62,997 nt of DNA from a virus. Taxonomy: Duplodnaviria; Caudoviricetes. A program made the translations under genes and the position numbers. The notes beneath the pieces were generated by a model. The model ran no database searches, was not told the DNA's origin, and worked only from the letters and a program-made list of their open reading frames with translations. Position 1 is the stretch's first letter. Each line of letters opens with the position of its first letter. The stretch is taken from positions 1-62,997 of the IMG/VR virus record IMGVR_UViG_3300009149_000034. One strand, given 5' to 3'. Of this stretch, positions 15,909-28,399 are shown one piece after another.

Positions 15909-15910
15909 AA

Positions 15911-16255
15911 ATGGTACTGGATTTCTGCAGAACAAGCCAGAAATGGGAGAGGTTACCTCTCTAGTGCATTCCTTAATGTATGCACGCCACTAAAGGCAGG
16001 CAGGGGCCCTCTAGGCTATTGTTCTTGCGAACAACCGCCCTAGGGCCCCACGCCCCCACTTTCAGCTAGCAGTACCCATGGAGGAACGCCTAACTCTAGG
16101 GGTCGAATTGGACGTGTGGCGCCGACCTAAGCAGTTATACTAACTGGATAGTTTCTCTTACGGGAGAACAGGGGGTGCTACACCCCCATGGATTATTTGC
16201 TACCAGGCCGGGCCTTTTGGTGCCCATTCCGCACAAAAGAACCTACGTAGCAGTT
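15911..16255 (+). ncRNA. putative multi-hairpin structured non-coding RNA; the first domain is retron msr/msd-like
   Basis: About nine stem-loops in ~345 nt with long-range closing helices (GGTACTG 15913-15919 / CAGTACC 16070-16076; TGCTAC 16198-16203 / GTAGCA 16247-16252); G-U pairs and a UACG loop favour the + strand. Confidence 0.65.
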
Positions 16256-16262
16256 AGTAGGA

Positions 16263-16291
16263 AGAGAGCAGCCACGCGCTGCTCTTTTTTT
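16263..16291 (+). terminator. intrinsic terminator closing the structured element
   Basis: AGAGAGCAGC-CACGC-GCTGCTCT followed by a T run. Confidence 0.88.
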
Positions 16292-16293
16292 GC

Positions 16294-17880
16294 TTACTCC
16301 TGCCAGAACTTCATGTCCCCGTGTAAAACCTTCCACGCGATCCACCCAAACAACGCAGCATGCAAACAGTCATCAGACTTCTGAGGGAAGTGACGCCATA
16401 CCTTTTTACCTTGCGTAGTAACCTCTTCGAACTCATTCATCATATCGTCTAACGCAGGTTTCATCTCTAATAGAGGTCCAAACTCAACCTCTTTCTTCTT
16501 GAGAAGCATAAAGAAGTTATCTATGAGTGTAGTCCTATCCCCGTGGTACCGGTCTAACCCATTAAACTGTAACGCTGTCTTGAATGAACCATACTGTACT
16601 TGTGTAACCTTATGGTGCCCCAAAGATTTACGCAGTAAATCATTAGCTAACGCCCCCTCCCCTGCGTCACCTACGGCCATGGATACCCCGTATAATTTAC
16701 ATATATGTGCTATATCCTCATGCGCCTGTACAGGATTCATACCAGGGTAAATCTTATAGGTCACACAACACAATTTACTGTCGGTTGCGCGCTGTCCCCA
16801 AACCCATAAGACCGTTCGGGATACACCTGTAGTTCCACCCCCCGACCAGTCAATACCCGCAACATACTTGCTATACCCGCGTAACTTAGCAGACTGTGGG
16901 TACGCCACTAACTCAGGTCCAACGCACAACGCCTCGAGCTCCTCTAAGGATATAAGGCGAGATCCTATAGCGTCACTGACACCCAAAACCTCATTCCTAA
17001 AAAGGGAGATGGGTGACTCTTCATACTTTTGTTTTATACGCTGCCACCTGCGTTGTGCATGCTTGTACTCTACAGGTCTATTAACCATAGACAACGGCAC
17101 GTTCTTAGGCATTATAAGCTGACTAATGTGAAAACCTTTGAGCGTTTTTTTCGGCTGCATGTCCACCCATTGACCTAAGAATGGGTTTAGGTACGCAGAG
17201 CACTTAACACAAATGGGACCGTCTTTGCCCATGGCTCTCTCGCTATCTATGAACGAATACTTACCGCATGCAGAGCATTTCATAACCCACTCAGTCTGAG
17301 TACTGAGGTCCCACAAGAATTGGATTGTATTCTCCATCGTCTTGGGAGTACCTGCGTAGGTTTCATACGCATAGTTAGACTCAGACATGGTCTCATTGCC
17401 CACAGTTATAACTGGGTCATATAGAATATCCTGTACCTCATCGTACATGTTCCGGTCAGTTGAAGGACCACGGAGCCTGTCTGCGTCGTCACACCCATAT
17501 GTAAAGAGCATTTCTGCCCCATTAGTAAACTGTTTATGAAATACACGATCTGCTAGTTCAGTGTGTAAAAAGTTCTCTTTTAGGATAGGAGAGTACATCA
17601 TCGTTTTTCCAACACGACTATTAGAAAAACGGGTAGTTTGCTCCTTAGAAGGACTTACAAACATTGTCGAAAAAAAGGGTATAAGAGAACATTCAATGAT
17701 GGAGAAGTTGGCTAATGTTGTAGACTTCGCCACCTGGCGACTGGTCTTAAAAAGAGTACGCCTATATCGACCATCATAGAAAGCCTTGTGCATTGGCCAG
17801 TCGTCTAAGCGGAATGGTTTACCGTCTAAGCGAACCCAAGCCTCTGCCACTTGCGATAAGGTAGCACGATCAACAGTCAT
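16294..17880 (-). CDS. terL: terminase large subunit
   Basis: KTSRQVAKST Walker A, YDEVQD Walker B, GTPKT coupling motif, two CxxC, nuclease GIDWSGG and DDCLHA. Confidence 0.9.
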   Translation of the reverse strand: MTVDRATLSQVAEAWVRLDGKPFRLDDWPMHKAFYDGRYRRTLFKTSRQVAKSTTLANFSIIECSLIPFFSTMFVSPSKEQTTRFSNSRVGKTMMYSPILKENFLHTELADRVFHKQFTNGAEMLFTYGCDDADRLRGPSTDRNMYDEVQDILYDPVITVGNETMSESNYAYETYAGTPKTMENTIQFLWDLSTQTEWVMKCSACGKYSFIDSERAMGKDGPICVKCSAYLNPFLGQWVDMQPKKTLKGFHISQLIMPKNVPLSMVNRPVEYKHAQRRWQRIKQKYEESPISLFRNEVLGVSDAIGSRLISLEELEALCVGPELVAYPQSAKLRGYSKYVAGIDWSGGGTTGVSRTVLWVWGQRATDSKLCCVTYKIYPGMNPVQAHEDIAHICKLYGVSMAVGDAGEGALANDLLRKSLGHHKVTQVQYGSFKTALQFNGLDRYHGDRTTLIDNFFMLLKKKEVEFGPLLEMKPALDDMMNEFEEVTTQGKKVWRHFPQKSDDCLHAALFGWIAWKVLHGDMKFWQE

Positions 17881-17946
17881 ACTTGTAAATTACAGTAATA
17901 ACAACAACTTGCAAATCAAATAATTTTGCAAAGGAGGACAAAGGAA

Positions 17947-19188
17947 ATGAGCAGACCTAAAAAGGGTGAGGGAGAAGCACAACATTACTGCGAACTCAAC
18001 GACATCCCGAGAGCGTCGGTTAAGCAGATCAAGGATCAGATCAAGCTTTCGATGGATACGCAGCAACACAGAGGCGTCCCCTGCATCGTCGGAGAAGCGG
18101 GAATCGGAAAGTCGCAGATCGTGGCGCAGCTAGCAAAGGCTAGCGGTGCCAAGGTGTACGACATCAGGACTGCTCACTACGGGCTCGTCGGTGCCGGCAT
18201 CCCCAGCACCAAGAACGCACCAGAGGGATTCTTTGACGTGGTGGTCCCGTCAGTATTTCCCAAGCCCGGAGAAAAGAGCATCATGCTCTTCGAGGAGATC
18301 AACCAGGGTCTCCCACACGCTATCTCCATGTTCTTCAGTCTCATCGAGGACAGGCGCATGTTCAACTACGTGCTGCCGGAAGACACGACCGTTATAGCGC
18401 TGATGAACCCGGCCACTGCCCAATACGCAGTGACTGCGGTCGAGAAGAACGCAGCGCTGAAGAGGCGCCTGAAGTGGATCTTCGCGATAGCGAACTTCCG
18501 GGACTGGCTCGAGCATGCCAAAACGCCGGCGTTCCACGATTCCGACAGCGTCGCTTTCCAAGGAGAGCCCAAGCCCTGCCATCCGCAGGTCCTGTCGTAC
18601 GTGCAGATCTTCAACAGCAACCTGTACGACACCAAGGCAAGAGACCAGGGAAAAGTATACGCCTGCCCAGCAACGTGGCAGACGGTCTCCCTGGACATGT
18701 ACATGATGGAGAAGGGTGGATACGACGTCACGTCCCCCTTCGCGCTGAACAGGATCAGCGCGAGCATCGGGAACACCATGGGCATCCACTACCTGGAGTT
18801 CGTGAAGGATCACAGCACCGCAGTGCGTGCCGACGACGTAATCGAGGATTACACCAAGAGAGCCAAGAAGGCCGTGATCAGCCTTCTCGAGAGTTCACAA
18901 CACGAGAAGATCAACGAGCTCAACGTTAACGTTCTCCGGTATATGTTTGGTGTACAGCCCAAGGCGAAGAAGGCGGCGCACAACCTGGTGGAGTATCTCC
19001 TGGATCTCCCGAACGAGATGCGGTCTAGCGTCCTCAATCAGCTGCGCACGGTCTCGGATGAGAACGATGCGAACGACTACCTCTTCGACATCGTGCGAAA
19101 CTTGCAGCGCCACAAGAACTGGGTAGACGTCCACACACAGTTGGACGAGACCCAGACGCTGGTAGAGAAGGCGCTCGAAGAGGTCTAA
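17947..19188 (+). CDS. MoxR-like AAA+ ATPase
   Basis: Walker A GEAGIGKS, Walker B LFEEIN, ALMNP sensor, ALKRR arginine finger; start at ATG 17947 after AGGAGG. Confidence 0.85.
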   Translation: MSRPKKGEGEAQHYCELNDIPRASVKQIKDQIKLSMDTQQHRGVPCIVGEAGIGKSQIVAQLAKASGAKVYDIRTAHYGLVGAGIPSTKNAPEGFFDVVVPSVFPKPGEKSIMLFEEINQGLPHAISMFFSLIEDRRMFNYVLPEDTTVIALMNPATAQYAVTAVEKNAALKRRLKWIFAIANFRDWLEHAKTPAFHDSDSVAFQGEPKPCHPQVLSYVQIFNSNLYDTKARDQGKVYACPATWQTVSLDMYMMEKGGYDVTSPFALNRISASIGNTMGIHYLEFVKDHSTAVRADDVIEDYTKRAKKAVISLLESSQHEKINELNVNVLRYMFGVQPKAKKAAHNLVEYLLDLPNEMRSSVLNQLRTVSDENDANDYLFDIVRNLQRHKNWVDVHTQLDETQTLVEKALEEV

Positions 19189-19931
19189 ACCCCACGGAGC
19201 TTCATTACGGTGAGGCCTAAAACCTTAGCTTGTTCTTCCAAGAACAATCTACAGCTCGCTAACTTGGACAACTGGACTCCTAGGCGGTCCTCTGGAAACT
19301 CTGTGTTCTGGAGGACCGTCTTGTCCAGTTGCTTCCAAGCATAGCGTGTTTCACGCTGTAAATTTTTGGCGTCGGAGGATATTATATTGTCCAATACCCC
19401 TTGGCTGAAGTCTAACTCTTCAGGCGCTACAGCCCACCCCGCTCTCTTTAGAACCGTAGCTACGAACATCTGAACGTCGTCATCGAAATCAGGTACATCA
19501 TCGCCATAAGGATCTTGCCCTCGGATTACCGCGGCTTCTATAACTGCCCACGCCATGTGATACACGGAAGGTTCCTGCAAACACTCTGGATTAAAGGGCA
19601 TCCCGTTTAAAGCCTGCACAGTATTCTGGAATACTAGGTTATCCCAGTAGAAAGCTAAATTAGATTGTAAGGTTAAGGCCGCTTCTAGCTTATTTCTGGC
19701 CTCACTATCTAAGTCAATATCGTCCTGCTCTAGGGTTAACCAAAAAGTCTCAGGCTCCCAGTCTTGAATTTGAATACCGTAGAGAGTACGTACCGATGCG
19801 TAGATAGCAGACGCAGGGCAGTCTTCAGGGAGATCCTTCAACAGACTTCTGGCTTCATCCTTATTTTCACCAGAAAGATCAACTGTGAGTTTCACAGTAA
19901 GTTCAGCTAGTTTCTCAAATTCAGGGCGCAT
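19185..19931 (-). CDS. hypothetical protein, likely head/packaging module
   Basis: 248 aa ORF co-directional with the terminase; no recognisable motif. Confidence 0.7.
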   Translation of the reverse strand: MRPEFEKLAELTVKLTVDLSGENKDEARSLLKDLPEDCPASAIYASVRTLYGIQIQDWEPETFWLTLEQDDIDLDSEARNKLEAALTLQSNLAFYWDNLVFQNTVQALNGMPFNPECLQEPSVYHMAWAVIEAAVIRGQDPYGDDVPDFDDDVQMFVATVLKRAGWAVAPEELDFSQGVLDNIISSDAKNLQRETRYAWKQLDKTVLQNTEFPEDRLGVQLSKLASCRLFLEEQAKVLGLTVMKLRGV

Positions 19932-21007: not shown

Positions 21008-22414
21008 GTGGAAAACAAGGAAAACCCTTCGGTGAAAGAAATACGAGATGAGTCTTACAAAGCCATGGGCGCCGTCATGCAATGGCTCAGCAGCCCCCGT
21101 GGCGGAGACAACTTCTACGGACGGATCATGAATGGGTGCGGCAGAACGCCCAAGGAGGGGGTAAAAACAGCGTGTGTGACTCTTACCTCGGAGGGAAAGT
21201 ATCTCCTCCTCTGGGATCCAGCATGGTTCGTTAGCCGTAAGATGCCAGACCGCATCCTGACGGTGATCCATGAAGCGGGGCACATCGTCCTACAACATCT
21301 GGAAAGAGCCCTACGTCTGCGGCTCTCCGTACGAGAACCAGAAGTGTTCCAACGGCTCCTACCCATCTTTAATATCGCTGCTGACATGGCGTCAAACGAT
21401 ATTGCTCTCAGGCCCTTCGTAGATTCCGGAGTCTTCAAGAACTACAAGGACGGGTTTCTCTTCCCGGAGAACCCACAATACGATTTTCCAGAGAATCAGA
21501 CGTTCGAGAAGTACCTGGAACTCCTCATTCAGAAGGCTAAGTCCGAGGGGTACAACCCCAAAACAGGTGAGGGCGCTGTACCCCAATGGATGGAAGGGAT
21601 GCAGGGACACCTGCCCTGGTGGAATGAACTCGACTCAATGACAGAGGATGAGATCGAGAACATGCACCAGAGAGCGAAGAGGGAATCGAAGAAGATCGTT
21701 AAGAAGGCTGTCGAGCAGACAAAGAAAGACCGCGGAACAATGCCTTCAGGTCTGGAGGGTCTGATCGAAGGAATGCTCGAGGAACCTCAGGTTCCCTGGA
21801 CAGTGATGCTCCAGAACCTGATGAAGGGGAGCATTACCTCCAAGCTGGACGAGAGCACCGCGTGGCCTAACATCGGACTGCTCACGGAAGAGGCGATGGC
21901 GCAGGGGATGGAGCCTTATCCGGGTTTCCAGAAAAAGCCAGGTATCCACGTGACCGTGGCTATCGACACTTCTGGAAGTGTTTCGGACGAGAACTTCAAG
22001 AAGTTCATGGGTGAGATCCAAGGAATTATGAGCAGCGAACAGGCTGTGAGCGTGCACGTACTCATGTTTGATGCCGCTATCCAACATGAGTTCATCCTCA
22101 AGGAGGACTCCAATATCGATAACCAGCATCGTTATCGGTATGGGTACGGAGGAACATCCTTTACACCAGCACTCCGGCATATACTGGGAGTGGATGATGA
22201 CCAGAACTGGGAAGAAAACGCAGAACGTCTGAAAGAGCCCGCCCCTCGCCCAGACATGGTTGTCATGTTCACGGATGGTTACGCACCTGTAACCGAGGAA
22301 GAGGGCGGACCTATGCCCAAGTATGAACCCCCATGCCCACTAATGTGGGTGATCACCGAAGACGGTACTGTTCATCCAGGCATGGGCAGTAGGGTCGTCA
22401 AGATGGAGTACTAG
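21008..22414 (+). CDS. HExxH metallopeptidase-like plus VWA domain protein (MoxR partner)
   Basis: IHEAGH..LQH, FNIAAD...N; MIDAS motif AIDTSGSV, GGTSF, FTDGY; GTG start 7 nt after AGGAGG. Confidence 0.88.
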   Translation: MENKENPSVKEIRDESYKAMGAVMQWLSSPRGGDNFYGRIMNGCGRTPKEGVKTACVTLTSEGKYLLLWDPAWFVSRKMPDRILTVIHEAGHIVLQHLERALRLRLSVREPEVFQRLLPIFNIAADMASNDIALRPFVDSGVFKNYKDGFLFPENPQYDFPENQTFEKYLELLIQKAKSEGYNPKTGEGAVPQWMEGMQGHLPWWNELDSMTEDEIENMHQRAKRESKKIVKKAVEQTKKDRGTMPSGLEGLIEGMLEEPQVPWTVMLQNLMKGSITSKLDESTAWPNIGLLTEEAMAQGMEPYPGFQKKPGIHVTVAIDTSGSVSDENFKKFMGEIQGIMSSEQAVSVHVLMFDAAIQHEFILKEDSNIDNQHRYRYGYGGTSFTPALRHILGVDDDQNWEENAERLKEPAPRPDMVVMFTDGYAPVTEEEGGPMPKYEPPCPLMWVITEDGTVHPGMGSRVVKMEY

Positions 22415-22417
22415 CCC

Positions 22418-23029
22418 ATGAAGATCTACCGACTTAAACTGCGTCAGAGGCGTCTGGATAATACTCGGAAGCATGCTTTCCACTACTTCCCATTCGACAA
22501 TGTCTACTTCGTTCCGACGAACCAAGTATCGATTAGTCGGCGCCTATTCAGGTACTGCCTAATAATCGATGTTGATCCGACGTTACGGAGTGCCATTAAA
22601 GATGTGTCAGTACAGAAGCACCGAGTGTTAGAGATCCCTCGTAGAGACAACATCGCATGGACAGACACCGATAAGGACGAAGACGTTACAGAATTCCTGA
22701 ATAAGGGAGACTGGACTATGCTGGTACCTACATACGCCCGTGTAGACAAGCATACGAACACAGCTAAGCTAAGTTACGTCTTGTCCGACGCAGTTAAGGG
22801 TATGCACAATCTGACCGCGCACCTTCCAGGTGTTAAGATCCAAACACCTAAACGTACAGTGCCTGCAATTTGTGCCCTGTGTGCACAAGCAGCGAACTAC
22901 TACGCTAACAAGTGTTCACCTGGAAGGCGCGTGTGTGCCAATAACATAGCACTATCTAGCGATGCGCTAGACCTACAAACCATCGTTGACATTGAAGAGT
23001 CTATCCGTGGTGCAGGAGAAGTAAAATGA
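22418..23029 (+). CDS. hypothetical protein with C-terminal 4-Cys motif, directly upstream of the RT
   Basis: 3-nt gap after the VWA gene, ATGA overlap with the RT; CALC-x10-C-x6-C. Confidence 0.75.
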   Translation: MKIYRLKLRQRRLDNTRKHAFHYFPFDNVYFVPTNQVSISRRLFRYCLIIDVDPTLRSAIKDVSVQKHRVLEIPRRDNIAWTDTDKDEDVTEFLNKGDWTMLVPTYARVDKHTNTAKLSYVLSDAVKGMHNLTAHLPGVKIQTPKRTVPAICALCAQAANYYANKCSPGRRVCANNIALSSDALDLQTIVDIEESIRGAGEVK

Positions 23030-24207
23030 CTAATGGATACGAGGATACACGACTAGAGGAAATACACGTAAATACCAAGTTAGATCCTTTGATCATTGAT
23101 GACTTCTCCTTAGCCTTCTTCCTAGGCTTCCGGAATAAAACCTTGTGGCATGCGCTCTACGCAAATACCGGCAACATGTATAAGGTGTTCAAGATACCCA
23201 AGAAAACTGGGGGATACCGGATGATCCATGCGCCGGAGCCGCTGATGAAGCACTTATTGGACAGAGTACATGTACGTTTACTGATGCCCCTACAGGAAAA
23301 GTTAGGGGACCACGTCACCGCATACCGTGAAGGTAAATCCATAACGGATGCGGTGGCGTACCATATTCCTAAGTGCAAAATTTGCGATTCAGCTCCTCCA
23401 GACAAGACACCCAAGAAGCATGACTGCCCTAAACGTGGTGTCTACATACACATGGATCTCAAGAACTTCTTCTCTAACACCCGTCGAGCCTGGGTTCGTA
23501 ACTACTTCATGCACAAAGGATATAGCTTTTACGTTAGCGGGCTAATTGCGCAGCTTGTTACTGTCGACGACATCCCTAACCCTAGGTACCCCAATGCGGT
23601 AGGACACCAGAAAGACAAATTACGAGAATTCTTTACAGGTGTACCGCAAGGAGGACCCACGTCAGGGGCGATATGCAACTTGGTTGCAGACTATAGGATG
23701 GATAAACCCATACTAGAGTACATACGGGAACTAAACAAACGACATGGGTTAAACGGTGAAAGGTCCTGGAGGTATTCTCGTTACGCAGATGATATGACAT
23801 TCACCTGCGGAATAGATCTTACGAGAGAAGAGAAGACCCAAATAACTAAAGAGATCCAAAAGGTCGTCGAAAAGTCGGGCTACCGCATAAATGAAAAGAA
23901 GACGCGTATCTCTAACTCGTACTACCGTAAAACGATGTTAGGTGTAGTATTTAATCAAAAGCCTAATATACCAAAAGAGAAGTACATGCGTATGCGCGCC
24001 ATCATCCACAACTGTGTAACTCAAGGAATCAAAAGTCAGGTTAATAGAGTACACAGGAAAGACGCAGATGACCTAGTCCTCTACCTTAGAGGAATGGTTA
24101 GCTACTACTCACAAGTCCACCCTAAGAAGGCAGCAAAGCTTAAAGAGGAACTCGATGTGGCAATAGCTAATCACCTAAAGGAGGAAGGAGCGCAAGCTGC
24201 ATGTTAA
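23026..24207 (+). CDS. retron-type reverse transcriptase
   Basis: YKVFKIPKKTGGYRMIHAP, AYREGKSI.DAVAYH (NAxxH-like), DLKNFF, PQGGPTS...NL, YSRYADDMTF (YADD at 23782-23793), GYRINEKKT, MLGVVFN at the VTG position, thumb RAIIHN...LRGMVSY. Confidence 0.93.
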   Translation: MTNGYEDTRLEEIHVNTKLDPLIIDDFSLAFFLGFRNKTLWHALYANTGNMYKVFKIPKKTGGYRMIHAPEPLMKHLLDRVHVRLLMPLQEKLGDHVTAYREGKSITDAVAYHIPKCKICDSAPPDKTPKKHDCPKRGVYIHMDLKNFFSNTRRAWVRNYFMHKGYSFYVSGLIAQLVTVDDIPNPRYPNAVGHQKDKLREFFTGVPQGGPTSGAICNLVADYRMDKPILEYIRELNKRHGLNGERSWRYSRYADDMTFTCGIDLTREEKTQITKEIQKVVEKSGYRINEKKTRISNSYYRKTMLGVVFNQKPNIPKEKYMRMRAIIHNCVTQGIKSQVNRVHRKDADDLVLYLRGMVSYYSQVHPKKAAKLKEELDVAIANHLKEEGAQAAC

Positions 24208-25607
24208 AAAAAGAGGCTTACTACGAGGGACCTATATTTACACTAGCCCGTTCTAATGCAGAGGACCGTCCTGAGTTACTTTTCATCAATACTACACGTA
24301 ACGAAGATTTCAATGAAGAGGATATAGAGACTATTGCGGAGAGTTCCCTAGTAAAAAAATTACTGGGGGACTCTTTTATATTAGTACTAGCGCCACAACG
24401 AAAATGGAATCAACGTTATCGGTGGAATAGTGACCCCAAGGAACACGACTTAAAATTGAATGTACTGCATGTTACACCTGACGTTAGTAACTTACTAATT
24501 AATAGATTAGATGAACCTTATCTGCGAAATGCGAAGGTATGGTTACGGAAGTCAGATGGTACCTTAAAAGCTTATGTGCCAAATGATGTTCATAATTATT
24601 GTCCCTCTCCTGCAAAATACGTAATGTCCTGTGAAGACTGTATGAGGAAAGGTGAGTTTACTGCTTGTGAATTTAGCAAGTTTGCCTCGTACATATCCGA
24701 GGACTTTAGCGGTATGGATAACTTCGATGCTATTAGATCTAAGCTTATACACCGTAAAACTAAAGTAGGTCCGTACTTATTCGTAAGTGCTTCCATGACA
24801 CATCCAGGTATAGAACCGTACTTACGACCCGCACGTGAGCATTACTTTGAAGTCGTAGAATCTGTCGCAGATATCCGTCGAAAAGCTAACTTAGAAAGGA
24901 CCAGATTCAACAAATTTAAGAAAGCAGAGTGTGCCAATTGTATGCTGCATAATACTTGCCATACACGTTTGTATGATGATTACTTTATACGATACTGTAG
25001 TGGAAAGTATGAAGGCGACGAAAAGACAATAGCCTCCAGGATGGTTGATAAAGTTACGATCCCTTATACACCTACACAACTACGTTATCTCACTCTAAAT
25101 TCTGGGATATTAAATAAGCGTGTGAATAGGTGTAAGTACACGGCGACGTTCAAACTGTTTGAAGGACCCTATTATGATACTACGGATGGAACTACAACGT
25201 CGCGTCCTACGTTACTATTCGGTATACATAGAACTCTGCTCCCCGGCCAGTGCTCATTCATGCCTATAAGAGACTTCGATGATGCCGTGAGACTACTTAA
25301 TGGTAAAAAAGACTATGTGATACCTAAGGATCGAAAGTACTTTAACACCGTTCAAACTGCTACTCTTCTACAGTTGTGTCATCAGCAATACTCAGTAGCT
25401 CGAGGAGGATGGGGCTGTACGTCCTACCCGAGAGCGTTTACAACCTACGACAGACTCTATGACTGTTTCAAGAGTTACCACTACTATCCGCATAGCTCCA
25501 TAACAGCCAATTGGACAACGGTAGCAGCAAAAAATCTAAAAGATGTTTACATAGAATACAAGCGTTTCATGCTAGAGGAGAAATCAGTATCACCGTTGAG
25601 ACGATAA
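24201..25607 (+). CDS. Cys-rich hypothetical protein directly downstream of the RT
   Basis: Overlaps the RT stop by 7 nt; C...CEDC...C and CANC-x5-C-x12-C clusters. Confidence 0.75.
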   Translation: MLKKEAYYEGPIFTLARSNAEDRPELLFINTTRNEDFNEEDIETIAESSLVKKLLGDSFILVLAPQRKWNQRYRWNSDPKEHDLKLNVLHVTPDVSNLLINRLDEPYLRNAKVWLRKSDGTLKAYVPNDVHNYCPSPAKYVMSCEDCMRKGEFTACEFSKFASYISEDFSGMDNFDAIRSKLIHRKTKVGPYLFVSASMTHPGIEPYLRPAREHYFEVVESVADIRRKANLERTRFNKFKKAECANCMLHNTCHTRLYDDYFIRYCSGKYEGDEKTIASRMVDKVTIPYTPTQLRYLTLNSGILNKRVNRCKYTATFKLFEGPYYDTTDGTTTSRPTLLFGIHRTLLPGQCSFMPIRDFDDAVRLLNGKKDYVIPKDRKYFNTVQTATLLQLCHQQYSVARGGWGCTSYPRAFTTYDRLYDCFKSYHYYPHSSITANWTTVAAKNLKDVYIEYKRFMLEEKSVSPLRR

Positions 25608-25608
25608 T

Positions 25609-26715
25609 TTAAACAGAATTAGGGTCAAAGTCAGAACAAACACTACTAACCGCAGCTAGAGCCTCGCTCTCAGCTGTTTGGGCAGAGGCTAACGTAGCCT
25701 CTGCCTCTATTTTGGTTTCAACCGATGCGGCTAGTGCGGCGTTCTTTTGATTCAACTTATTAACAGACGCAGCATACTCACTGTTAGCCCAACCACAATA
25801 ACTCGTAACTAGCGAAGATAGATTTGATTCATATGTCTCGACGTTTTGACGAGGTAAAACAGCGGGATCAAATGTACCAAGTAAATACCCTCCAGGACCG
25901 TACATCGCTATAAGGGCATCGCGCATAGCACCACGCGCTGCCAGATCAGAACCTGTAGAAGGGGCAGTAGGCCATCGACTAGTGTCACCAGCAGATGTGC
26001 ACCAAGCGTCATAAGCCACGATCATACCACCGGACAAAATAGGATCTACATTAGTACGTAACCCTGTAGCTCCGATTACATACGTATGGAAGAAATTATT
26101 CACAGCTGGCTGATACGTAGTCCAATTACTCGTAAATTGAGTACAGTAGTTAACTGCCTCTTCCATTAAGTCTACGAGAGATTGCGCGTCAGAAGCAGCA
26201 CTCTGTGCCGCGGTTACGGCAGCTTCCGCTGCGGTTAACTCCACCTCGGCTAACTGACGTGCTGAGCGTGCTGAAGTAAAGTCGTCTTCTAGTTGCTGCA
26301 CGAAAGCAGGAGATACGGATGGGTGTGAAGACATCGAATCAACAGCGTAGAAGCTAGTCTTATACAGATACCAATCACTACTAAGAGTATCTACTTTAGA
26401 GTAGATAGCGTCCTTAGCTAGCACCGCATCTGTCAACTTATCAAAGTTTACCGAAAACTCTGCGTCTAAATAATACGTATCACCAGCCGCAATAGCAGCA
26501 GCACGACTGACTGCCAAGGTCTGAAGATCCCGAGGGGTCCCAACACGGGTGAATGTGTCTAAGGCTACATCCGCAGGATCCGCGATTGTAAATACAAAGA
26601 TCTGATATTGGGGTAATTCCCCTGGGGAAGTTACAACCGTTCTTATACGGTATGGGCGAGTACCATCAGGTAGTGTAATCTGCTGTCTATCCTGTTCCAA
26701 CGCAGTGTATTCCAT
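25609..26715 (-). CDS. hypothetical virion protein with coiled-coil segments
   Basis: Ala-rich heptad segments; N-terminus resembles the next two genes. Confidence 0.7.
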   Translation of the reverse strand: MEYTALEQDRQQITLPDGTRPYRIRTVVTSPGELPQYQIFVFTIADPADVALDTFTRVGTPRDLQTLAVSRAAAIAAGDTYYLDAEFSVNFDKLTDAVLAKDAIYSKVDTLSSDWYLYKTSFYAVDSMSSHPSVSPAFVQQLEDDFTSARSARQLAEVELTAAEAAVTAAQSAASDAQSLVDLMEEAVNYCTQFTSNWTTYQPAVNNFFHTYVIGATGLRTNVDPILSGGMIVAYDAWCTSAGDTSRWPTAPSTGSDLAARGAMRDALIAMYGPGGYLLGTFDPAVLPRQNVETYESNLSSLVTSYCGWANSEYAASVNKLNQKNAALAASVETKIEAEATLASAQTAESEALAAVSSVCSDFDPNSV

Positions 26716-26717
26716 GA

Positions 26718-27092
26718 TTAACCCTCTATATACGTGTAGTCAAACACACCAGGAAACTCCCCGGTAGCTTCACTGTACGCCCTTGCTAACCCTTCAGTAC
26801 GTGACCGGGTGTAGACTGCAAATTCCAACGCGGTCTCTATAGAAGGATACTCACGATAAGCCTCATCCGATAGGTAGTAGGGAGAACCAATCACAATCGC
26901 TTCCTCTTTACTAGCGGGAGTATTATCTATATGCCACACGGTAGCTACGTGTTCAAAGTAATCCGTCTCAGTATTCATAACGAATATTTCCCGTTCGATC
27001 CCTATACTACGAGTTACCTTGTTAGTTACTCGATACATGGGAACACCAGGTATGACTTCCTGCGTTTGTCTCAACTCAATCGTGATACTCAT
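26718..27092 (-). CDS. hypothetical virion protein, single-domain paralog
   Basis: YRV...IFV...FEHVAT...YYL pattern shared with its neighbours. Confidence 0.7.
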   Translation of the reverse strand: MSITIELRQTQEVIPGVPMYRVTNKVTRSIGIEREIFVMNTETDYFEHVATVWHIDNTPASKEEAIVIGSPYYLSDEAYREYPSIETALEFAVYTRSRTEGLARAYSEATGEFPGVFDYTYIEG

Positions 27093-28399
27093 TCGAATGT
27101 CTCCGTCGATACTGACGAGAAGTTGTCAGCGTCGAATGCGTCTACTAACGACTGTGCTTGCGTTTTCATCGCTGCTAATAAACTTTGGGCCTCATTAAAG
27201 TCAGATACGACTGTATCATATGTGTCTACTCTATAATAGAGCTCGTCATCTCCTGTTATATTCCTCGCAGCTACACCATCATCATACGGACCATATACAC
27301 TAATACCGCGTGTTACAGTGTACGTAAGCGCCCCCTCGTACGCTGTAAATCCCGAGGAAACTACTGCTTCATCCCCCACACTTGAACTAACCGTATTAGT
27401 AACGGTAGGAGGCACGACCCCCATCTCTTCCCATAGCGGTGTAGTATCAATCGTCAGGGTATCACCTGTAGTCGCAGATCCCCCTGGAAGTTCTAATAGA
27501 TATGCAGACAAGAATTTAGTTAAAGCCGGAACACTCGTCACTACGTTATCTAAGTCACTCAGCGTAGCAACCCTCACGAGTTGTTCTCGCGTGTCCTCCA
27601 ATGCTCTTCTAAAAACGATACTATCATGCAGGTCTGTTTCGGTAGTAGCAGTGTCCACTTCTACGTGAAAGTAGTAACCATCTGTACCAGCAGGCGACCC
27701 CATAGCTTTAGTAATATACCTCAGTCTAAGTTGGGTACCCATCGTTCCAGTGTAAAGTACCCACTCATCGGATTCAAACTGATTTAAGTCATAAGAGTCA
27801 GCGAGAGTTTGTAGGTCGTCGCGCATAGTATTCACGAGAGTCACGATAGAAGTCTTGCTAGTATCGAAGAAAGAATAATCGCCTACTAAAAACTCGGTAC
27901 CTACGAATCCGGTGTAATCCCTGTCAGCTTGTCCGTCACTATAAGGCCCATATACAGCGGTTCCTCTAGTTACTGTAAACTTTATATTTTGAGCATACGC
28001 TAAAAAATTCTCTCCTACTATGCCGTCTACGCCTACGACACTATTCACAGTATATGTTTTACCTGCGGATACACCCATTTCCCGCCATACTGGCGAGAGC
28101 GGAGACATGATAGTTATCACATCACCAGCCAGGAAGGTTCCTACAGCTCCCAGAAAACTAGTGGAGCGTATTAAATTAACAGGAGGTACATCCACAGAAA
28201 GTGTAGCCAGATCAGACAGGGTAGCTACTCTCGTATACTGTTCTGCTGTCGGAAAAGAGGCTTTGGTAATCACGAACGGCGTTTCTAACTCATCCGGCGT
28301 AGTAGAAGTTTCAACTTTAGTTCTAACAAAATAACCGTCATCCCCTGGGGGAGATCCGATAGCTCTCTTCGTAAAAGTTACTGTTATCTTTGAAGGCAT
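27089..28399 (-). CDS. hypothetical virion protein made of two tandem homologous halves
   Basis: GSPPGDDGYF/GSPAGTDGYY, RVATLSDL x2, W.EMGV x2, VYGPY.DG x2. Confidence 0.75.
   Translation of the reverse strand: MPSKITVTFTKRAIGSPPGDDGYFVRTKVETSTTPDELETPFVITKASFPTAEQYTRVATLSDLATLSVDVPPVNLIRSTSFLGAVGTFLAGDVITIMSPLSPVWREMGVSAGKTYTVNSVVGVDGIVGENFLAYAQNIKFTVTRGTAVYGPYSDGQADRDYTGFVGTEFLVGDYSFFDTSKTSIVTLVNTMRDDLQTLADSYDLNQFESDEWVLYTGTMGTQLRLRYITKAMGSPAGTDGYYFHVEVDTATTETDLHDSIVFRRALEDTREQLVRVATLSDLDNVVTSVPALTKFLSAYLLELPGGSATTGDTLTIDTTPLWEEMGVVPPTVTNTVSSSVGDEAVVSSGFTAYEGALTYTVTRGISVYGPYDDGVAARNITGDDELYYRVDTYDTVVSDFNEAQSLLAAMKTQAQSLVDAFDADNFSSVSTETFE

Follow-up and report, generated by a model that had tools for sequence, protein, structure and literature searches.

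A retron-family reverse transcriptase with two cysteine-rich partner proteins forms a conserved three-gene unit in a lineage of large, uncultured tailed phages

In bacteria, reverse transcriptases (RTs) of the retron family are regarded as devices against phages. In the present work, an RT of this family was studied in the IMG/VR virus record IMGVR_UViG_3300009149_000034, a sequence of 62,997 bases with an estimated completeness of 35%, which in its full length is referred to here as the window. Together with its two neighboring genes, orf203 and orf468, the RT represents a retron-family system that belongs to a phage, includes new partners and lacks a contiguous RNA; here, an RT of this family is a long-kept possession of phages, and its partners match nothing known. 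The described systems scoring best with the window RT are the type XIII retrons (model RT_XIII), which, in the accessible part of the description by Mestre et al. (2020, PMC7736814), combine an RT of clade 10 with a WH-SWIM zinc-finger protein and a HEAT/ARM protein. Furthermore, viral RT clusters of unknown function related to retron RTs exist, among them RTC3 ('Retrons-like') and RTC5 (hLife 2024, PMC13681634). The accessible part of that article describes no cassette, partners, phage lineage or gain/loss pattern for these clusters, and the window clade may belong to RTC3, RTC5 or neither.

Four packed open reading frames (ORFs) on the plus strand of the window correspond to a VWA gene, orf203, the RT and orf468, with the following features:

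22418-23029, plus strand: orf203, small partner and first gene of the unit, featuring an FPFDxVY-like motif (invariant Y30) near the N-terminus and a Cys4 knuckle toward the C-terminus
22871-22936, plus strand: Cys4 motif of orf203, CxxC-x10-C-x6-C, residues 152-173, invariant in 42/42 homologs
23026-24207, plus strand: retron-family RT of 393 amino acids (aa), second gene of the unit (RVT_1; PADLOC RT_XIII)
23374-23427, plus strand: Cys/His insertion of the RT (C117, C120 ... H132, C134), invariant in the 44 closest RTs
23782-23793, plus strand: catalytic YADD, RT residues 253-256, from the ORF translation and alignments
24201-25607, plus strand: orf468, large partner with two Cys4 clusters and third gene of the unit, from the alignment of 38 homologs
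24600-24668, plus strand: first Cys4 cluster of orf468 (C134, C144, C147, C156), invariant in 38/38 homologs
24930-24998, plus strand: second Cys cluster of orf468 (C244, C247, C253, C266), with C253 present in at least 90% of the homologs and a long basic helix preceding it
20972/21008-22414, plus strand: VWA gene (DUF2201_N metallopeptidase and VWA-like), upstream neighbor outside the gained or lost unit

The junctions were read directly from the bases. Stop and start codons of the VWA gene and orf203 are separated by 3 nucleotides (nt) (TAG, ccc, ATG), orf203 and the RT overlap in ATGA with GGAGAAG upstream, and the RT and orf468 overlap by 7 nt (ATGTTAA) with AAGGAGG upstream; a Shine-Dalgarno-like run precedes each of the three junction starts. 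At the distal end, orf468 and the convergent gene at 25609-26715 have their stops 1 nt apart. Since the GTG at 21008 follows an AGGAGG by 8 nt, this position is the more likely start of the VWA gene. The gene packing described in the original prediction was thus found to be correct base by base, as was its statement that no non-coding space adjoins the RT, the genes between 21008 and 25609 overlapping or lying 1-3 nt apart. orf203, the RT and orf468 constitute a self-contained, translationally coupled three-gene module, with which the VWA gene is probably co-transcribed. The arrangement is far beyond chance, its order and strands recurring in related viral loci.

In Pfam, the RT matched RVT_1 alone (4.4e-21). 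Its best PADLOC model was RT_XIII (3e-59, 199 bits), and the 25 best PADLOC matches listed, out of 69, were all retron RT models. Likewise, retron models gave the best NCBIfam matches, yet under their cutoffs (143 versus 450 and 133 versus 235). A profile built from 44 close homologs (A1) recovered Ec67 (6e-25) and Ec86 (5e-24) first from the PDB, followed by a group II intron RT (1.6e-8) and by DRT1/DRT2 (~3e-4). When compared to the solved retron RTs Ec67/Eco2, Ec86/Eco1, Kva2 and Ec78/Eco7, the window RT aligned in the palm and fingers motifs, including the IPKK.GG.R box of motif 1, motif A and YxDD as well as the thumb box. It differs from them by an N-terminal extension of 50 residues, which is predicted to bind orf203, and by the insertion of cysteines and histidine before motif A that is found in 28/48 members of the phage clade; moreover, the phage unit features no fused or adjoining nuclease, ATPase, NDT or TIR effector. 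Mean column identity in the RT alignment was 48%, and YxDD, motif A (D[LI]xxFF) and P(Q/P)G were kept in 48/48 distinct RTs of the phage group. Judged by these profiles and motifs, the RT is classified as a catalytically intact member of the retron RT family, in agreement with the earlier description of an intact RT and at odds with a dead enzyme.

To place the RT among its prokaryotic relatives, one genome per species was searched, resulting in 353 relatives, of which 80 were kept. These comprised 78 bacterial RTs, mostly from Planctomycetota and Myxococcota and featuring identities of 24-32%, and two phage-group contigs in archaeal metagenome-assembled genomes (MAGs). The sampled bacterial loci fit the type XIII description as far as it is given in the accessible part of Mestre et al. 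2020 (PMC7736814): four of their RTs reached 517-544 bits on RT_XIII, compared to 199 bits for the window RT, and both the SWIM_XIII and HEAT-ARM_XIII partners were confirmed in L088 and L101, and SWIM_XIII in L140. In a tree of 148 RTs, computed as a quick IQ-TREE run with a short search and no non-retron outgroup, the 48 distinct phage-group RTs were located on one side of a branch with a Shimodaira-Hasegawa-like approximate likelihood ratio test (SH-aLRT) value of 97, and the 78 bacterial type XIII RTs on another branch (SH-aLRT 90). Because of the lower bit score, the separate clade and the lack of SWIM or HEAT/ARM partners, the window RT was placed outside type XIII; it is best regarded as a relative of the type XIII RTs forming a phage-only clade, rather than as a member. 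Hence, a placement within a described retron type, named in the original prediction as a refuting outcome, was not obtained.

The similarities to type XIII retrons extend to a cassette composed of an RT, a zinc-binding protein and a second accessory protein, and to largely vertical inheritance, as far as the available part of the type XIII description goes. By contrast, orf203 and orf468 match neither SWIM_XIII nor HEAT-ARM_XIII, and the orf203 and orf468 profile hidden Markov models (HMMs) retrieved nothing from the 78 bacterial type XIII loci. The WH-SWIM motif of type XIII, given as CxCx12CxH in the part of the source considered, also differs from the orf468 patterns Cx9CxxCx8C and CxxCx5Cx12C. 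In type XIII loci, an estimated ~0.7 kb lies between the SWIM gene and the RT, whereas the genes of the phage unit overlap, and the carrier is a bacterial chromosome instead of a phage. VTG was present in 71/78 type XIII RTs, while the phage clade mostly features LLG, MLG or VLG. The CxxC...HxC insertion, located between the NAxxH-like motif and motif A and probably zinc-binding to judge from its residues, occurred in 28 of the 48 distinct clade RTs and in 0/78 bacterial type XIII RTs. In terms of retron membership, the RT lineage was found at this locus, and an adjoining msr-msd with inverted repeats, the NAxxH and VTG motifs and an effector of a described class were not.

Assignments to other RT classes were also considered. 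A group II intron RT was rejected, as TIGR04416 scored 74.6 bits against a cutoff of 300, i.e., without a maturase/endonuclease domain being recognized, and no intron RNA was found in Rfam. A diversity-generating retroelement (DGR) was dismissed because no direct repeats of at least 35 nt, and therefore no template/variable pair, occur within 12000-34000. For the defense-associated RT (DRT) and abortive infection (Abi) enzymes of the UG lineage, Drt2 gave 31 bits versus a cutoff of 390, and the DRT1/DRT2 structures were matched at only ~3e-4. Low NCBIfam scores, the lack of repeats of this length and the lack of an Rfam family thus exclude the intron, DGR and DRT readings. Finally, a Cas-linked RT was discarded, since PADLOC detected no Cas1 or other defense model among the neighbors. 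The NCBIfam, repeat and PADLOC scans were accordingly in line with the earlier statement that maturase/endonuclease domain, DGR signature and Cas1 are all missing.

Megablast of the region from 17 to 29 kb against GenBank phages gave no match, and tblastn with the RT returned 15 phage records; a single-protein IMG/VR scan with the RT found no close relatives. Staphylococcus jumbo phages (PALS_2, Madawaska, S6 and others) likewise are large virulent phages encoding stand-alone retron-type RTs. Compared by RT sequence alone, these differ from the window RT, with which they share 24-26% identity.

For the partner proteins, no match was obtained in Pfam, PHROGs, PADLOC or NCBIfam. In the alignment of 42 orf203 homologs (A3), Y30, C152, C155, C166 and C173 are invariant at a mean column identity of 20%. 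In the alignment of 38 orf468 homologs (A2), with a mean column identity of 17%, C134, C144, C147, C156, C244, C247 and C266 are invariant and C253 is present in at least 90%, corresponding to the two Cys patterns given above. The cysteine richness initially noted for both proteins is therefore a family trait, with one Cys4 in 42/42 orf203 sequences and two Cys4 clusters across the 38 orf468 sequences. The AlphaFold2 models built from the proteins' own homolog alignments are confident, are of the mixed alpha/beta type and reached a predicted local distance difference test score (pLDDT) of 87.7 and a predicted template modeling score (pTM) of 0.84 for orf203, and 88.7 and 0.80, respectively, for orf468, in which a helix (residues 216-242) precedes the second Cys cluster. 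Foldseek reported no match at E<=1e-3 for orf203 against the PDB and for orf468 against the PDB and BFVD, and the A2 and A3 profiles had no matches at E<=1 among PDB sequences. In the ESM Atlas, the best scores of 0.85 (orf203) and 0.77 (orf468) stayed under the lead level of 0.9, and all structural rows were below a template modeling (TM) score of 0.4 on the Atlas's own poor models. Accordingly, neither neighbor matches a described class of retron effector, as had been supposed from the sequence. Both are considered real zinc-type proteins without a known fold, as far as the models allow, and orf468 looks like a nucleic-acid-binding protein on account of its sequence.

An exhaustive profile search identified 377 representative relatives of orf468 at E<=1e-3. 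The 150 best relatives listed are 237-562 aa long, most of them matching approximately the whole profile and the shorter ones a part of it; since the matches mostly span the whole profile, a closed family is suggested. A word-index search with the orf468 profile, a tool of low sensitivity, found one protein, and a single-protein IMG/VR scan with orf468 gave no match. Three of the 38 orf468 homologs matched positions 7-48 of DDE_Tnp_1_6 with 16.8-20.3 bits, compared to a cutoff of 25.1. A transposase identity was rejected, as the match covers the second Cys cluster only and represents a motif-level likeness. Isolated weak Pfam matches among orf203 homologs were disregarded.

The original prediction had proposed modeling the RT together with its neighbors. 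For the RT with orf203, the complex model supported binding, with an interaction score (ipSAE) of 0.76 (0.76, 0.75 and 0.81 in the individual runs), compared to 0.11 for the best control. The three runs had at least 83% of their contacts in common, and the pLDDT of the partner was at least 78. In the calibration, this mark was reached by 58/80 solved complexes and 2/110 mismatched pairs, counts that apply only roughly because own alignments were supplied for the RT and orf203. The modeled interface involves RT residues 3-37 opposite orf203 strands 1-10 and 63-78, and includes RT residues 83-84 and 162-170, with strand pairing of RT residues 8-13 with orf203 residues 3-7 and 64-71. RT residues 3-37 belong to the N-terminal extension, both printed Ec67 alignments starting at profile position 49. 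The extension is thus predicted to dock onto orf203 by strand pairing. No similar complex is known to us, which makes it unlikely that the model merely reproduced a known structure.

To evaluate the conservation of the unit, an IMG/VR scan seeded with the RT was carried out, yielding 302 relatives, of which 80 were kept and 57 loci represented this phage group; homologs of orf203 and orf468 were found by iterative HMM searches of the ORFs in the fetched loci. Phage-group contigs were up to 197,792 bases long, related contigs reaching ~170-197 kb, and the carriers are large tailed phages of an uncultured lineage. The gene order in common is that of the large terminase (TerL), a MoxR-like AAA ATPase, two minus-strand genes, VWA, orf203, RT, orf468 and a minus-strand gene family, followed by RuvC in most loci and by ribonucleotide reductase (RNR) where the locus reaches far enough. 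The VWA gene is located upstream of the unit in 57/57 loci. A homolog of orf203 was in place in 55/57; of the two others, L057 and L056, the former contains a diverged orf203 with a Cys4 end, as read by eye. A homolog of orf468 was in place in 49 of the 50 loci reaching it, including L047, whose copy escaped the HMM but was recognized on visual inspection. Random variation of the neighbors, which had been named as a possible outcome, was therefore not observed. L057 is the most basal of the RT-bearing loci, and the place of orf468 is taken there by an ORF of 162 aa that lacks cysteines (L057:9321-9809); the third gene may therefore have joined the unit at a later stage or have been exchanged in this locus.

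As this first sample had been chosen by the RT, a second search seeded with TerL was added (219 relatives, 80 kept), in which 40 loci spanned the region from VWA to the downstream gene. All three genes were present in 34/40 informative loci, many of them on the same contigs as in the RT-seeded set, and none of the three in 6/40. The six unit-negative loci (L219, L233, L235, L236, L237 and L241; four of them distinct) keep TerL, AAA, VWA and the downstream gene, and fall within one eight-row TerL clade with an SH-aLRT of 100; all 39 other rows of the TerL tree with a readable state were RT-positive. The gained or lost unit is exactly orf203-RT-orf468, and one gain or one loss explains the pattern, the tree being unrooted. 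No RVT_1 match was found elsewhere in five unit-negative partial records (13-74% complete). In its behavior, the site bounded by VWA and the downstream gene resembles a hotspot for cargo. Its two flanking genes meet in L219, a terminator-like hairpin being all that separates them (L219:5326-5376).

As a further observation, different uncharacterized genes occupy the site in other unit-negative loci (L233:3098-5526; L236:3686-5549; L241:4073-4796), including a protein of 383-392 aa common to L233 and L236 and a Cys-rich protein of 185 aa in L233.

Within the RT-bearing phages, distances of the RT tracked those of TerL (Spearman 0.83) and were similarly related to those of orf468 (Spearman 0.77), while the relation to orf203 distances was looser (Spearman 0.45, Pearson 0.83), in each case for 33 loci. 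In accordance with these correlations, the unit is inherited vertically among its carriers. At E<=0.001, 234 RT relatives were counted, which, together with the 377 representatives of orf468, indicates a common feature of an environmental phage group and not a one-off. Among cultured phages, the closest terminases were found in Salmonella phage Arash (31%) and in Vibrio phage D181 (28%), both distantly related phages whose genomes gave no RT-profile match. L082 and L083 are phage-group contigs within MAGs labeled Archaeoglobales and Bathyarchaeia, and the L082 contig of 78,677 bases is also listed as a virus in IMG/VR. Rather than pointing to an archaeal host, this placement is probably an artefact of binning.

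The original prediction had counted the VWA gene as part of the system, and a set of four or five genes, with the VWA/metallopeptidase and the MoxR-like ATPase (17926-19188) as functional components, is suggested by the gap of just 3 nt before orf203 and by the position of VWA ahead of the unit in every RT-seeded locus. The VWA gene encodes DUF2201_N (putative metallopeptidase, 8.6e-13), DUF2201 (VWA-like, 5e-15) and VWA according to Pfam. However, VWA, AAA and the downstream gene stay in the six TerL-related loci from which all three unit genes are missing, and on these grounds VWA is only a neighbor. Moreover, 167 phage records of GenBank contain a VWA homolog, and many of these phages are N4-like; in one such phage, Alteromonas phage AD45-P1, the VWA gene stands beside a MoxR-like ATPase without an RT. 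None of the 15 phage records from the RT tblastn was among the 25 VWA-bearing records listed. The larger system is consequently considered very unlikely; VWA belongs to the resident gene backbone, with the module located immediately downstream.

With regard to the template, a distant structured RNA at 15911-16291 had been proposed, which falls within the following feature:

15909-16293, no strand assigned: structured spacer between DNA polymerase and terminase with a AGCAGTAC-type motif, its link to the RT unit not being supported

The structured part of this proposal stood up well. The spacer of 385 nt folds far better than shuffled sequences (z -4.7 on the plus and -6.25 on the minus strand), contains no ORF of at least 60 aa wholly inside it, and has strongly structured equivalents in L009 (z -7.58) and L003 (z -6.14). 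Besides the window, seven relatives (L002, L003, L005, L008, L009, L011 and L032) carry the AGCAGTAC motif on the plus strand of their spacers, with four copies in L003, three in L005 and two in L008; the motif was not enriched elsewhere in the genomes. The use of this RNA by the RT as an msr/msd-like template nevertheless appears highly improbable. No nucleotide similarity to the spacer was found in any relative, even though the flanking genes align at 64-72%, and the L007 equivalent is not exceptional (z -1.95). In nine RT-bearing loci (L013, L017-L022, L027 and L034), the polymerase and terminase genes abut, overlap or are 10 nt apart, and no AGCAGTAC cluster occurs anywhere in the L020 (97% complete), L017 or L013 records. 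Being absent or unconserved in RT-bearing relatives, the spacer does not follow the RT module in its distribution. Furthermore, it lies between convergent genes, where terminators are expected. It represents a subclade-specific element, which could consist of stacked terminators, an origin, a packaging site or signal, or small RNAs. Hairpins interleaved with a plus-strand AGCAGTAC(C) motif were seen in the window (15909-16293), L003:230-560, L005:760-960 and L008:500-660.

A sliding-window structure scan of the region from 15.5 to 26 kb, based on 20-25 shuffles, gave z<-3 for many coding windows and singled out no candidate. The segment at 22780-22970 was rejected as an RNA candidate, with a z of only -2.3 for 200 shuffles and an unconserved inverted repeat. 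This repeat (22818-22832/22917-22931; 15 nt, 93% complementary) is located inside orf203, where it brackets the Cys4 codons, ~100-200 nt upstream of the RT start; no such repeat was present in 10/15 loci, and L002 has a 16-nt repeat elsewhere. The strongest local structure of the scan, at 19200-19400 (z ~-8 on both strands), coincides with the convergent ends of the AAA gene and a 248-aa gene and is probably a bidirectional terminator. Inside the VWA gene, the segment at 21540-21860 folds better than all 100 shuffles (z -4.0), a value obtained for the window alone.

DNA synthesis without a dedicated structured RNA, i.e., protein-primed (for example, on Tyr30 of orf203) and/or template-independent synthesis as in AbiK and some DRTs, would agree with the lack of space for a non-coding RNA beside the RT and with the divergence of the retron RNA-recognition motifs. 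It would also be compatible with orf203 having one invariant tyrosine beside four cysteines and being the predicted RT binder, in whose modeled interface residues 27 and 28 are listed. However, the RT groups with retron RTs and not with Abi/UG enzymes, Tyr30 itself is not among the confident contacts, and an invariant tyrosine may be structural. In the accessible parts of the sources, AbiK, DRT4 and DRT9 offer a possible analogy in synthesizing DNA without a neighboring structured template, but they represent another RT lineage and bacterial defense genes, and of such models only Drt2 scores the window RT at all (31 versus 390). This mode of synthesis is regarded as quite improbable.

As for the function of the unit, the following mechanism is proposed. 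The module is maintained at one fixed site downstream of VWA and near the terminase, RuvC and RNR genes. During infection, the RT, held by orf203 and working with orf468, which looks nucleic-acid-binding, would copy an RNA to yield a small product of DNA or RNA-DNA. Since there is no dedicated RNA gene beside the module, a phage transcript or an RNA from another locus would have to act as template. The complex of product and proteins would then most likely serve the phage against its host or rivals, as a counter-defense, a decoy or a means of exclusion, and not in building the virion. A use in conflict is suggested because a syntenic sister clade does without the module, none of the proteins is toxin-like or structural-looking, and the RT family is otherwise devoted to conflict. 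That the complex copies RNA into a small DNA product during infection, to be employed in conflict with host defenses or competitors, is in our judgment an even call.

Several points weigh against this proposal. No non-coding space adjoins the RT, and Rfam returned no family at the gathering score and chance-level matches at E<=5. The public runs holding the stretch amount to one DNA run, the probable source assembly, and no RNA run. Moreover, most members of the phage clade feature (L/M/V)LG in place of the canonical retron VTG, and NAxxH is changed to DAVxxH or weaker in this clade, with H113 remaining invariant. Recognition of the retron RNA is usually associated with the NAxxH and VTG boxes, and with these motifs altered, retron-style 2'-OH priming on an msr RNA cannot be assumed. 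Fold searches, Pfam searches on the homologs and PDB-profile searches gave no pointer to an activity of orf203 or orf468, and the binding of orf203 by the RT is a prediction expressed in model confidence only. The conflict role is drawn solely from the dispensability in the sister clade and, by analogy, from retron biology, and the position of the module among DNA-metabolism genes fits a role in replication or repair equally well.

In such a role, the module would be an accessory of DNA metabolism, providing RNA-templated priming, gap repair or recombination for a large genome. The genes encoded around the unit in the window indeed include helicase, primase, family A DNA polymerase (PolA), RNR and baseplate/tail proteins, as well as TerL (16294-17880, minus strand) and a RuvC-like resolvase, and the module is part of this block. 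Vertical inheritance over a deep divergence, the lack of a toxin-like effector and the resemblance of the zinc-knuckle proteins to nucleic-acid binders would also be expected of a housekeeping accessory. On the other hand, the syntenic sister clade lacks the module, with no other RT in the five partial records mentioned above, and the cultured phages Arash and Vibrio D181 likewise are without the module RT. Furthermore, we know of no retron-family RT acting in replication. A purely metabolic function is therefore judged unlikely, the conflict role described above being preferred.

With known retron types, random neighbors and a dead enzyme all at variance with the results, the claim of an undescribed phage RT system was retained. 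The cassette is undescribed in the literature searched, the supplements of PMC13681634 and of Mestre et al. lying outside this comparison of partly accessible sources. In its boldest form, the proposal states that lytic double-stranded DNA phages possess a private RT machine composed of the RT, a small zinc protein and a protein of new fold with two zinc clusters, which was kept while the terminase diverged to below 50% identity. This machine would make DNA without a retron RNA, by copying a phage message or priming on a tyrosine, for use against immunity or rivals; the combined statement is deemed doubtful. If it were true, reverse transcription in viruses would gain a new functional class, set apart from DGRs, retrons and defense RTs. 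If a DNA product is made, the unit would raise the testable question of what lytic phages use reverse transcription for, beyond mutagenesis by DGRs, and such a compact set of RT and cofactors might help to make DNA in cells. The presence/absence polymorphism and the predicted RT-orf203 interface offer handles for experiments.

Downstream of the module, three minus-strand genes (25609-28399) encode proteins of 368, 124 and 436 aa, which seem to have an N-terminal domain in common. This domain seems to be duplicated in the 436-aa protein, and an HMM seeded with the 124-aa protein also pulled in homologs of the 368-aa protein.

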